Shown: in pieces, positions 43,803 to 46,240 of the stretch
How the letters are laid out: each line of letters opens with the position of its first letter
Position numbering within the stretch: the first letter of the stretch is position 1
Source: Escherichia phage p000y
Reading direction: 5' to 3' (one strand)
Sequence record: MK047718.1
Length of the DNA stretch: 64,000 nt
Made by a program: the position numbers and the translations under genes
Notes under the pieces: generated by a model
Seen by the model: the letters and a program-made list of their open reading frames with translations, nothing else
Database searches by the model: none
Told to the model about the DNA's origin: nothing

Positions 43803-44215
43803 TGAGATATAGCCTTCGTTGTTTTATCGCAGCTTTAGTTTTTGCTATTATTCCATTCATTTGGAACAGCCAGAATACTTACATGGAAACTAAAGTAATT
43901 CCTGTGGAGGTAGTGGAATTAATCTCAGGTCAATCTACAGGAAAATATTCTAAATTAGAATTTATTGCAGTCTATAAAGATGAGCAAGGACGAGTTTTTG
44001 ACAGGCATGTATCACCATCGTTTTATACGCTTCTGAATAAAGGTGATACGATAGCTATAGAAATTCGTGAGATGGATATCAAACAAACTACTAAAGATAA
44101 CTTGATTTGGTTCTTTGGTACGGTGTTGTTGGTTTCTATCTGTATCACAGGTTTTATTACATGTATTGTATTTGGCATTGCATATTTAATCGATGAAAGG
44201 AAAAATAATGTTTAA
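43802..44215 (+). CDS. membrane protein, hypothetical
   Basis: 137 aa, N- and C-terminal hydrophobic helices. Confidence 0.6.
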   Translation: MRYSLRCFIAALVFAIIPFIWNSQNTYMETKVIPVEVVELISGQSTGKYSKLEFIAVYKDEQGRVFDRHVSPSFYTLLNKGDTIAIEIREMDIKQTTKDNLIWFFGTVLLVSICITGFITCIVFGIAYLIDERKNNV

Positions 44216-44471
44216 AGTGTACGGGTACGACTCTACTATTCATAAATGCATTTATTGTGATAATGCGAAACGATTGCTGACTGTTAAGAAACAGCCATTT
44301 GAATTCATTAATGTTATGCCAGAAAAAGGTGTTTTTGATGATGAGAAAATTGCTGAGCTTCTGGTTAAGCTTGGACGTGAATCACAAGTCGGATTGACTA
44401 TGCCCCAAGTGTTTGCTCCTGATGGAACTTCGATTGGTGGCTTTGACCAACTACGAGAATATTTTAAATGA
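44208..44471 (+). CDS. nrdC: glutaredoxin NrdC
   Basis: MFKVYGYDSTIHKCIYCDNAKRLL... near-identical to T4 NrdC by recall; 87 aa. Confidence 0.92.
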   Translation: MFKVYGYDSTIHKCIYCDNAKRLLTVKKQPFEFINVMPEKGVFDDEKIAELLVKLGRESQVGLTMPQVFAPDGTSIGGFDQLREYFK

Positions 44472-44824
44472 CATATTCATTAAATCTTAAAGATTTCCAA
44501 GATGTATACGAAGTTTGTGCCAATGAACTTGGTCCTGATGCTCCAACTATTATTGAAGTTTTAAATGTGCTCCCTTCGTCATTAGCTTACGAAGCCAAAT
44601 CATGGGGTTGGAACGACACTGTCGTTCGTGATGACCTTTACGTCCTGATGAACGATATGATGGTTAAAAAGGCAGAACCGGTTGCACCAATGGTTACCAT
44701 TACCGTTGAAGAATATAATCGCCTGCAAGCCATTGAAGAGCTTCTGTGGAACATTGAATGTGACCTGCCATCAGGGCTAGAATCCTGGATTGATTATGAA
44801 GAGCTCAATAAACTCCGGGGTTAA
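44468..44824 (+). CDS. hypothetical protein
   Basis: 118-aa ORF. Confidence 0.6.
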   Translation: MTYSLNLKDFQDVYEVCANELGPDAPTIIEVLNVLPSSLAYEAKSWGWNDTVVRDDLYVLMNDMMVKKAEPVAPMVTITVEEYNRLQAIEELLWNIECDLPSGLESWIDYEELNKLRG

Positions 44825-44874
44825 ACCGTGGTATTCTGCTCGATGGGAGACTGTCGAGCCAGACGTCGAAACAG

Positions 44875-44903
44875 TTTACAACGACGAAGAAACATGTTAT
44901 GAT
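44875..44903 (+). promoter_or_regulatory. early promoter (TTTACA, 17 nt, TATGAT)
   Basis: Preceded by a short hairpin. Confidence 0.5.
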
Positions 44904-44952
44904 GAACCTTCAATAAATGAATTAATTGATATGGAGATGGGAAGAGATTATT

Positions 44953-45123
44953 ATGCAAGTTAAATTATTGTACCGTTTATTAAAAAATGGCAAGCACGAT
45001 TGGTATTTGCTTATTAAAACCGATCCGAATTTTTTCTCTGGGCAACCATTTACAGTTCGTCCTACTAAACGTCAGCTTCGCAAAGCTAAACGTTCTCATC
45101 GTAACTTTTATAGAGAATATTGA
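44953..45123 (+). CDS. small basic protein, paralog of 45548..45727
   Basis: C-terminal RPTKRQLRKAKRSHRNFYREY. Confidence 0.5.
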   Translation: MQVKLLYRLLKNGKHDWYLLIKTDPNFFSGQPFTVRPTKRQLRKAKRSHRNFYREY

Positions 45124-45124
45124 T

Positions 45125-45538
45125 ATGAATATTTCTGAAACTCGCGGTAAATGGTTCAAGATTGTTAAAGAAGATGAAGAACTACAAGTCAAGTTTCCTG
45201 AATTAAAGAAAGGAACAATCATCAAGGTAATTGGTACTACTACCGAAGATGGTTATGGCGACCATGGCATTATCGAAGTGATGTTGAACACAGGTGAGAA
45301 ACTTTGCATCTATGACCGTGATACTTGTCTTTGGTGCTTCTGGGAATCCCATTCAATAGATGAACTCGAAGAAATTGACCAAGTAGTTTGTGACAGTGAA
45401 CTTGGCAAATTTGAAGGTGAACGTATTTCTTATGCTTTAGCTAAATTAGCCGCCCAAGAAAATAATGACGGTTATGAAGGTAATCTGATGCAAGCCGCAG
45501 CGGAATACATTGAATATTTAGAAAGACGTTTAAGTTAA
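45125..45538 (+). CDS. hypothetical protein
   Basis: 137 aa; ATG 45125 inside track ORF 44987. Confidence 0.6.
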   Translation: MNISETRGKWFKIVKEDEELQVKFPELKKGTIIKVIGTTTEDGYGDHGIIEVMLNTGEKLCIYDRDTCLWCFWESHSIDELEEIDQVVCDSELGKFEGERISYALAKLAAQENNDGYEGNLMQAAAEYIEYLERRLS

Positions 45539-45547
45539 AGGTTTATT

Positions 45548-45727
45548 ATGAAAACTGAATTATTTTATGGTGAAAGAAAAAATGGGCAAAAATCCTGGAA
45601 ATTTATTATGATTGGGGCCCCAAACAATCCAAATATGAGGACTTCAATTATTTCAGTAACACGTCCTACTAAGAAAATGATTCGTCAATATAAACGTTTT
45701 CATCGAGACTTTTATAACGTTTACTAA
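45548..45727 (+). CDS. small basic protein (59 aa), paralog of 44953..45123
   Basis: Below track cutoff; C-terminal RPTKKMIRQYKRFHRDFYNVY. Confidence 0.45.
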   Translation: MKTELFYGERKNGQKSWKFIMIGAPNNPNMRTSIISVTRPTKKMIRQYKRFHRDFYNVY

Positions 45728-45729
45728 AT

Positions 45730-45737
45730 TATAAATA
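45730..45737 (+). promoter_or_regulatory. late promoter TATAAATA upstream of gene 49
   Basis: Exact TATAAATA 30 nt upstream of the ATG. Confidence 0.6.
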
Positions 45738-45766
45738 CCCTTATCTATTTAAGGTAAGGGTTTATC

Positions 45767-46240
45767 ATGTTATTATCAGGCGCAAAATATAAAGAAGAAA
45801 AACAAAAATTTTATGATGCACAGAACGGTAAGTGTCCTATTTGCCACCGTGAATTAGACCCTGATGTTCAAGGTAACCATCTTGACCATGACCACGAATT
45901 AAATGGGCCAAAAGCCGGTAGAGTTCGTGGATTACTCTGTAATCTGTGCAACGCAGCAGAAGGTCAAATGAAGCATAAGTTCAACCGTTCCGGTTTGAAA
46001 GGTCAAAACGTTGACTACTTAGAATGGCTTGAAGCTCTTCTTGCTTATTTGAAACAAGATTATTCTGATAATAATATCCATCCTAATTTTGTTCCAGACA
46101 AAACTAAAGAGTTCTCAAGACTAGGTAAAGAGGAAATGATGGCCGAGATGCTTCAAAGAGGATTTGAATATAATGAATCTGATACTAAAACACAATTAAT
46201 AGCTTCATTCAAAAAGCAACTTAGAAAGAGTTTAAAATGA
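45767..46240 (+). CDS. 49: endonuclease VII (Holliday junction resolvase) gp49
   Basis: 157 aa; near-identical to T4 EndoVII by recall (CPICHRELDP...HLDHDHELNGPKAG). Confidence 0.93.
   Translation: MLLSGAKYKEEKQKFYDAQNGKCPICHRELDPDVQGNHLDHDHELNGPKAGRVRGLLCNLCNAAEGQMKHKFNRSGLKGQNVDYLEWLEALLAYLKQDYSDNNIHPNFVPDKTKEFSRLGKEEMMAEMLQRGFEYNESDTKTQLIASFKKQLRKSLK

Follow-up and report, generated by a model that had tools for sequence, protein, structure and literature searches.

The 64,000 nucleotides (nt) of the genome of Escherichia phage p000y analysed here (record MK047718.1; hereafter the window) carry the gene pin, which encodes a PinA-type inhibitor of the host Lon protease, and, on either side of it, two small genes for basic proteins that we call copy A and copy B (Table 1). 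Gene names at this locus were assigned by comparison with the record of phage RB69. The 1.9 kb around A-pin-B are 96-98% identical to RB69 and to other Mosigvirus genomes (T4-like phages of E. coli), and the window is that of an RB69-like Mosigvirus. A preliminary description of this DNA had noticed two open reading frames (ORFs), at 44953 (56 amino acids, aa) and 45548 (59 aa), as a pair bracketing a 137-aa gene next to gene 49. The coordinates, the + strand and the C-terminal strings that it quoted for both ORFs are correct, and the bracketed gene is pin (PF10465). The genes follow each other closely, the ATG of copy A overlapping the end of gene 49.1 by 11 nt and its TGA lying one base ahead of the pin ATG. 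A and B would be accessory, dispensable genes of the hyperplastic region that extends from nrdC to gene 49, tightly packed around pin.

Table 1. Genes, repeats and leader elements at the pin locus, in window coordinates
Feature	Position	Strand	Basis or remark
nrdC	44193-44471	+	RB69 comparison
118-aa ORF	44468-44824	+	corresponds to two separate RB69 ORFs (092c plus 091c)
Gene 49.1 homolog, 57 aa, upstream neighbour	44790-44963	+	phrog_2382 E=1.7e-28; RB69 annotation
Copy A, 56 aa, RB69ORF089c equivalent	44953-45123	+	ATG 44953, TGA 45121-45123
55-nt direct repeat, A-side arm	45058-45112	+	repeat search; encodes the RPTK...FY helix motif
ACTTTTATA in copy A, left copy of the 9-nt putative crossover microhomology	45104-45112	+	window/ST0 alignment
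pin, PinA-type inhibitor of host Lon protease, 137 aa	45125-45538	+	PF10465 E=4.7e-49; phrog_2167 E=4.5e-52; RB69 annotation
Copy B, 59 aa, RB69ORF087c equivalent	45548-45727	+	ATG 45548, TAA 45725-45727
55-nt direct repeat, B-side arm	45662-45716	+	repeat search
ACTTTTATA in copy B, right copy, 604 bp downstream	45708-45716	+	window/ST0 alignment
T4-type late-promoter box TATAAATA	45730-45737	+	sequence
10-bp hairpin, 3' arm containing the gene 49 Shine-Dalgarno	45737-45761	+	RNA fold -12.9 kcal/mol, z=-3.0
Gene 49, endonuclease VII, downstream neighbour	45767-46240	+	RB69 comparison
nrdD	46237 onward	+	RB69 comparison

Two members of DUF7279 on either side of pin

The proteins encoded by A and B are alike from end to end, with 22 identities in 59 positions by BLASTP (37%; E=8e-12). 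The preliminary description had seen a shared C-terminal segment; the similarity is real, but it is not limited to the C-terminus, as the BLASTP alignment spans the full length. Both proteins match Pfam DUF7279 (PF23945; a model of 53 positions with a gathering threshold of 24.5 bits), copy A with 54.5 bits over residues 7-53 and copy B with 53.7 bits over residues 7-56 (E ~1e-14), and both match the 59-position profile phrog_3272 (A, residues 1-56 on positions 1-59, E=5.8e-27; B, 1-59 on 1-59, E=3.9e-30). A and B are full-length members of DUF7279 / PHROG 3272, and each displays the features by which we define the family, i.e., a beta-beta-beta-alpha order, W17, a [RK]-P-T-K helix cap and basic residues at positions 46, 49, 50 and 53. 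At the DNA level, the likeness takes the form of two in-register direct repeats, one of 55 nt (75% identity, spacing 604 bp) and one of 43 nt (74% identity, 44948-44990 / 45543-45585, spacing 595 bp), the latter at the 5' ends of the genes. The two arms of the 55-nt repeat have in common the exact words CGTCCTACTAA (11 nt), TAAACGTT (8 nt) and ACTTTTATA (9 nt); over the whole of A and B, the longest exact words in common measure 11, 9, 9 and 8 nt.

We consider with high confidence that A and B are real protein-coding genes under purifying selection, since synonymous change exceeds non-synonymous change and the frames are intact. In pairwise Nei-Gojobori comparisons, dN/dS is 0.12 for A (window vs AV113), 0.07-0.31 for B within Mosigvirus and 0.145 for B of Tequatrovirus vs Dhakavirus, and the Fisher test of the synonymous excess gives p=1e-5 for A and 0.01, 2e-4 and 1e-6 for three B pairs. 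Matches covering at least 80% of the query are found by tblastn in 407 phage records for A and in 372 for B; the reading frames of the family are intact in hundreds of records, and the protein of copy A is encoded 100% identical in 72. The preliminary description had named a lack of conservation in relatives as fatal to its proposal, and the similarity is indeed conserved there. Moreover, both genes are preceded by Shine-Dalgarno-like sequences, and their stop/start packing is typical of T4 early operons.

Some individual copies are broken. In the RB69 reference (AY303349), copy A has a run of seven A where the window (44982-44987) and Mizar have six (extract L001:2055-2226). The frame is shifted by the extra base, and this explains why the annotated RB69ORF089c is no longer than 38 aa; a mutation of the stock or an error of sequencing could be the cause. 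In O157 typing phages, copy B falls into two tblastn pieces annotated as 30-aa fragments (phage 6, KP869104.1, 64963-65138), apparently another frameshifted copy.

A and B belong to an ordinary, already catalogued accessory family of T4-like phages. At the sequence level they do not depart in any way from the family records annotated as RB69ORF087c, RB69ORF089c, RB32ORF078c and JS98 orf76. No mention of DUF7279 or of the RB69/RB32 ORF names was found in the literature searched, and the DUF7279 annotations that we examined do not state the paralogy, the allelic states or the putative relic in Pin described below. As far as we found, what is new is the ancient paralogy of A and B, the natural, paralog-mediated deletion of pin and the derivation of the tail of T4 PinA from DUF7279. 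In practice, the consequence is mostly annotation tidying, the RB69ORF087c-like and RB69ORF089c-like genes being best treated as one family with two ancient paralogs, both of them real genes.

DUF7279 is confined to T4-like phages of enterobacteria and is a very narrow family, without a characterised homolog. When a profile of the family was run with HMMER against all of 1.84 billion representative proteins, about five true clusters were returned; the remaining matches are not homologous, being either PQQ-/propeller-like repeats that align only with the N-terminal NG-turn hairpin or low-complexity sequences. Word-index searches of 5.8 billion clusters yielded about 20 proteins. T4-like phages are the source of every one of them, most by far are already annotated as PF23945, and none of these matches contains an informative domain fusion. 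One family protein of 100 aa (P0029) looks like an upstream extension. Members are present in Mosigvirus, Tequatrovirus, Dhakavirus (JS98), VR7-like phages, Moonvirus (Merlin, whose member is phrog_15176 and still PF23945) and S16-like Salmonella phages. There is no free-standing DUF7279 copy in T4. A scan of IMG/VR gave only 11 loci, mostly the same isolates, and provides no independent population sample.

Within this family, A and B are ancient paralogs rather than the product of a recent duplication around pin. A shares 34-39% identity with the B of Mosigvirus (38% with its own B) and 36-44% with the B of Tequatrovirus and Dhakavirus (44% for Tequatrovirus). The B orthologs of different genera are 53-62% identical to one another (62% for Mosigvirus vs Tequatrovirus). 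Copies arising from a recent tandem duplication should be closer to each other than to orthologs elsewhere, and this is not what is found. Since A is no closer to its own B than to the B of other genera, it is not a recent copy of it. The two slots also differ in their range. Several genera have a member of the family between pin and gene 49; between 49.1 and pin, where A lies, one was seen in Mosigvirus only. In Klebsiella phage KPV15 and in Serratia phage CHI14, the pin-to-49 slot is taken by ORFs that are unrelated, and in CC31 it is empty. In JS98 (extract L003:1529-2004), a Pin-like gene of 57 aa is followed by the 100-aa orf77. The C-terminus of the latter (ASFWCFWTNDD) is reminiscent of a stretch from the middle of Pin (LWCFWESHS), so that the pin ahead of B may have been rearranged or split.

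Allelic states and recombination at the locus

Four states of the locus were found in Mosigvirus. The window, RB69, ATK47 and JS09 have the order 49.1-A-pin-B-49; Mizar and AV113 have 49.1-A-pin-49; G2285 has 49.1-pin-B-49; and in ST0 a single 56-aa A::B gene lies between 49.1 and 49, with no pin. In keeping with this, the records with a match of at least 80% identity number 145 for A, 122 for Pin and 55 for B. A, pin and B are present or absent independently of one another, and the bracket around pin is one allelic state, not a functional unit. The preliminary description had called a duplicated pair around one gene unusual. The pair does consist of true paralogs, but close relatives show three other arrangements, in a hyperplastic slot that is prone to recombination.

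The single gene of ST0 encodes residues 1-53 of A followed by the last three residues of B (...NFYNVY*). In the alignment of window A, window B and ST0, the sequence is that of A up to ...CGTAACTTTTATA and then that of B, as ACGTTTACTAA...; its DNA tracks A to CATCGTAACTTTTATA and continues as B and the downstream flank of B with ACGTTTACTAAATTATAAATACCC.... The change from A to B falls inside ACTTTTATA. When the 604 bp between the two copies of this 9-mer are deleted in silico from the window, the product is colinear with ST0, with 33 mismatches in ~1180 nt, and only three of these are found at 180 nt or less from the junction. A 120-nt probe spanning this junction is found as one uninterrupted piece in ~28 records, including phiE142, PHB12, Shf125875 and SHSML-52-1, and as two pieces ~530-570 bp apart in phages of the A-pin type; in A-pin-B records, its halves lie 604 bp apart, beyond the joining limit of the search. 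As shown by comparison of these alleles, recombination between A and B has deleted pin in natural isolates. Deletion is favoured over insertion by parsimony, because an insertion by two crossovers at the same 9-mer needs a donor that already carries the 3' end of A upstream of pin. JS09, an A-pin-B phage, and ST0 are assigned to one and the same species, and the polymorphism is therefore recent. JS09 itself was ruled out as the direct parent of ST0, the 3' end of the ST0 gene being that of a window-type B (NVY*) and not that of the JS09 B (NIY*).

We propose that selection, by keeping the helix motif alike in the two copies, would maintain short direct repeats in them and in this way a substrate for recombination. 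An exchange at ACTTTTATA has removed 604 bp, i.e., the 3' end of A, the whole of pin and most of B, and left an in-frame A::B gene before gene 49. The locus offers a clean natural example of diverged paralogs that serve as recombination substrates and toggle a host-takeover gene, pin, in T4-like genomes, even within a species (JS09 vs ST0). The copy A module also lies between two direct copies of another 9-mer, ATTGATATG, at 44925-44933 and 45119-45127 (spacing 194 bp). This repeat was considered as the origin of the A-less allele of G2285 and ruled out, as the junction there is a different one (GATATGGAG followed by TATGGTTATGAAT).

Turnover of the same kind is seen in Tequatrovirus. In Aplg8, a pin of 148 aa (ending ...SFSDRAF*) is followed by B, with a stop/start overlap TAATG (extract L002:1555-2177). 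The Pin of T4 has 161 aa and ends ...SFSDR-MIQQYKRLHQMFYNT*, its last 15 residues being homologous to the family helix MIRQYKRLHRMFYNT of the Aplg8 B (T4 extract L011:598-1083, - strand). In the DNA alignment, T4 passes from the R codon of pin directly into the ...ATGATTC... of B. The last 15 residues of T4 PinA are thus a relic of the C-terminal helix of B, joined by an in-frame deletion. The fused tail carries R46Q and R53Q in T4, and R53Q only in PYPS2T. T4 PinA, a Lon inhibitor according to Hilliard et al. 1998 (as cited in PMC8835725), represents the physical neighbour of the family, and its tail is homologous to the DUF7279 helix, whereas Pin's own domain is unrelated to DUF7279. The Pin of the window (137 aa), unlike T4 PinA, is without this tail. 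Structural and mutational work on Lon inhibition should take into account that T4 PinA, the protein studied biochemically, carries 15 residues of foreign origin.

A 36-aa probe across the fusion of Pin and tail is found in 432 records with a coverage of at least 80%, and 114 of these also have a complete B downstream. In this RB32/PYPS2T type, the tailed Pin is followed by a non-coding second pin 3' end, ACTCAAAATTCTTTTTCTGAC, and then by the complete B (PYPS2T extract L027:1040-1324). Such an arrangement looks like an unequal crossover of T4-type and Aplg8-type alleles, joined at CTTGAAA. The idea that the T4 tail is the simple relic of a deletion of B had to be refined, as the RB32/PYPS2T types carry both the tail and a full B. 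Shigella phage Sf22 represents a fourth Tequatrovirus allele, with neither tail nor B: its Pin ends SDRAF*, its pin abuts the gene 49 leader (extract L029:640-700), and B is precisely deleted between GTTTTA repeats. In Ec_YwIITB1, 17 nt that repeat the pin 3' end/T4-type junction, ATTCTTTTTCTGACCAA, interrupt B behind its codon 43 (extract L009:1201-1461), and this B is a frameshifted pseudogene annotated as an 86-aa hypothetical protein. Altogether, the Tequatrovirus alleles can probably be interconverted by single recombination events at short repeats.

Two known modes of rearrangement in T4-like genomes can be compared with this one. The hyperplastic regions of T4-type phages are shuffled in modules by cassettes of an early promoter and a stem-loop (PeSL; Arbiol et al. 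2010, PMC2839356; Comeau et al. 2014, PMC4122927). As in PeSL regions, A, pin and B are small ORFs between conserved genes that are gained, lost and swapped at short repeats, as whole-ORF insertions and deletions. In contrast to them, the repeats of A and B are diverged coding segments plus microhomologies of 6-9 nt, not promoter-plus-stem-loop cassettes. A PeSL cassette is recognised by an early promoter plus a stem-loop or terminator repeated at the borders of a variable ORF. No repeated non-coding motif flanks A or B; promoter-like sites occur at chance level (10 found, 8.9 expected), and the single terminator-like site lies elsewhere.

Deletions between short direct repeats are also known in T4 from the classical studies of rII deletions. 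The present junctions resemble them, that of ST0 lying in a 9-nt exact repeat, that of Sf22 in GTTTTA and that of the RB32 type in CTTGAAA. The difference is that the A/pin/B alleles are fixed natural variants deduced by comparison, whereas the rII deletions are events measured in the laboratory.

Predicted fold, basic helix face and possible functions

AlphaFold2 models, built with an alignment of 17 sequences, confidently predict both copies to be a beta-beta-beta-alpha mini-domain with an amphipathic C-terminal helix whose hydrophobic face is packed on the sheet (copy B, pLDDT 90.7, strands 2-9, 15-22 and 31-36, helix 42-58; copy A, pLDDT 83.9, strands 2-9, 15-24 and 27-33, helix 39-55). 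Invariant or nearly invariant in the 17 sequences are G13 in the first turn, W17, the R-P-T-K helix cap, R46, K49, R50, H52, R53 and F55; K42 is nearly invariant as well and Y56 is conserved in most members of the family (B numbering). On a helical wheel, M44, Y48, F51 and F55 form a hydrophobic pole, and K42, R46, K49, R50 and R53 lie at 118-178 degrees from it. The Merlin and S16-like members, at 22-33% identity, have retained R46, K49 and R53, and their position 50 is basic (K in Merlin). Because they lie opposite the hydrophobic pole and are kept at 22-33% identity, the invariant basic residues would be conserved for something other than folding. The proteins are small and rich in Arg/Lys, just as the preliminary description had it, with a pI of 10.8 (A) and 10.6 (B), 13-14 Lys/Arg vs 3 Asp/Glu, and 9 (A) or 7 (B) Lys/Arg in the last 21 residues. 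The family would thus provide a compact, confidently foldable basic domain of 56-61 aa with a candidate binding face.

The solvent-facing basic stripe of the helix is likely to be the working surface. A and B, in a gene block that is early in T4, would act as accessory proteins and bind a polyanionic target by this face. That the target is a nucleic acid is a tentative proposal to which we give somewhat less than even chances, and the sole argument for it is the invariant basic stripe on the exposed helix face. No link of A or B to any nucleic-acid-binding family was found among the sequence and fold matches. A double-stranded RNA-binding domain (dsRBD, PF00035) has an alpha-beta-beta-beta-alpha fold and profile-detectable motifs, including KKxAK at the N-terminus of helix 2; A and B give no such sequence signal, and the first helix of the dsRBD is missing in their models. 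PUR repeats and Whirly-like domains consist of a four-stranded sheet plus a helix and pair with a second repeat; with these, Foldseek returns E values of 1.0-1.8 and TM scores of 0.40-0.44, and of the four strands three are predicted here and the fourth is missing. The dsRBD and PUR scores do not stand out, as hundreds of alpha/beta proteins without any relation to A and B score as well, and for the minimal domains made of a basic sheet and a C-terminal helix (dsRBD, PUR repeat, Sso7d/chromo-like) there is no sequence signal in A or B. Among the 5027 defence and counter-defence models of PADLOC-DB, none matches A or B at E<=1, and NCBIfam and Rfam contain nothing relevant for them. A screen of early proteins of AV110 (Mosigvirus) for toxicity is uninformative here, since the genes in it were chosen for their likeness to those of early proteins of T4 and the Gp94 that it brought up is an unrelated 109-aa protein.

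As a whole, the explanation that we prefer is that A and B are ancient paralogs and accessory proteins with a polyanion-binding stripe, at a locus where recombination occurs; its probability can be put at roughly 0.5. Several points speak against it. The basic stripe could equally dock on an acidic protein, the hydrophobic residues on both faces of the sheet in the models hint at oligomerisation or at a protein partner, and the direction of the ST0 event is argued from parsimony and not from observation. If A and B do bind a nucleic acid or a host protein, they would lengthen by one the list of small accessory proteins of T4-like phages whose target is defined.

The acidic-protein variant can be given a biological form, in which A and B are host-takeover or counter-defence proteins whose basic face docks on an acidic host protein, for instance a component of a defence system or a nucleic-acid-mimicking surface, and neither on Lon nor on nucleic acid. 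We regard it as unlikely, though worth keeping in view. The genes lie in the block between nrdC and gene 49, upstream of the late-promoter box that precedes gene 49; the family is narrow; its patchy distribution, with repeated independent loss and pseudogenisation among near-identical phages, is typical of accessory genes under host-dependent selection; and the sheet, with hydrophobic residues on its two faces, looks as if it made contact with a protein. Yet no model of a known defence or anti-defence protein matches A or B, and the geometry of the stripe together with an overall charge of +10 is at least as typical of nucleic-acid binders. The neighbourhood of pin inspires a more specific proposal, namely that DUF7279 acts with or on the Pin/Lon axis and that its basic amphipathic helix is an element interacting with Lon or with Pin. 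Indeed, a family member adjoins pin in Mosigvirus (on both sides), Tequatrovirus, Dhakavirus and Moonvirus, the stop of pin and the start of B overlap in Aplg8, and the 15-residue end of the family helix is fused in frame to the C-terminus of Pin in 432 records, including T4. The motif ..[KR][IL]Hxx[LF]Y.. also bears a weak likeness to ..KIHSNLYH of sul20, the Lon degron of SulA, an exposed and flexible C-terminal segment whose terminal Y19 and H20 bind the Lon N-domain (PMC8087443). However, the local alignment of RLHxMFYN with KIHSNLYH does not reach significance (p by shuffling, 0.06-0.16 with B or a tail; 0.013, uncorrected, with A), the segment is predicted to be helical and partly buried, not flexible, and the hydrophobic residues of the motif would be buried in the folded protein. 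Moreover, ST0-type phages keep a DUF7279 gene without pin, a free DUF7279 gene is lacking in T4, Sf22 and CC31, which do have pin, the pin-to-49 slot is occupied by unrelated ORFs in KPV15 and CHI14, and one or two of the invariant Arg are gone from the fused tail, just as a relic would lead one to expect. More weighs against an obligate link to Pin/Lon than for it, and we hold such an action to be improbable. Its extreme version, in which the DUF7279 helix is a portable Lon-engaging module and the free A and B are Lon decoys, adaptors or co-inhibitors beside PinA, appears to us quite improbable; if true, the PinA tail would be a Rosetta-stone fusion and not debris, in T4 and more than 400 genomes, the family would be a second class of phage Lon modulator, and the biochemistry of T4 PinA would have to be read differently.

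Two other proposals dispense with a binding face altogether, and we give little credence to either. One is that the ORFs act only in cis, translation ending before the gene 49 leader hairpin and unmasking the ribosome-binding site of gene 49, with the protein irrelevant. The leader lends itself to the idea. The late-promoter box and the hairpin of the window seem to conserve the arrangement reported for T4 gene 49, and sequestration of ribosome-binding sites is reported for T4 genes in a work that lists Barth et al. 1988, on gene 49, among its references (PMC2988022). The hairpin, annotated as a terminator in Aplg8, ATK47 and G2285, occludes the Shine-Dalgarno; the stop of copy B lies 10 nt upstream of it, and in every allele some ORF ends 5-12 nt ahead of it. 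Against this, purifying selection on the protein, as measured by dN/dS, largely refutes a role in cis alone, residues are invariant across genera at 22-33% identity, AlphaFold2 gives a confident compact fold, and copy A is not adjacent to the hairpin. The other proposal takes the pair for a recent tandem duplication or for the footprint of a mobile cassette that brought pin, with A and B as something like target-site or terminal repeats. It would account for direct repeats that flank a single gene at 595-604 bp and for the absence of Pin from some relatives, but the copies share only 37% of their amino acids, their synonymous sites are saturated, A is no closer to its own B, and each copy also occurs alone beside pin. 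In addition, no transposase, integrase, homing endonuclease or PeSL motif adjoins A or B, and to obtain A-pin-B from a genome of the ST0 type, a donor that already has both junctions is needed.

Other features around the locus

Two further observations concern the vicinity of the locus. Residues 64-118 of the 118-aa ORF downstream of nrdC match phrog_3402 ('antitoxin from a toxin-antitoxin system'; E=1e-32) and, faintly and below the cutoff, the T7 gp5.9 family of RecBCD inhibitors (PF25708, E=0.015). On the other side, gene 49 and nrdD, which overlap in the window, are separated in ST0 by ~808 bp of unannotated DNA (extract L004:2185-2992) and in AV113 by an annotated homing endonuclease (extract L007:2304 onward); the extra DNA of both phages is probably a mobile endonuclease insertion.

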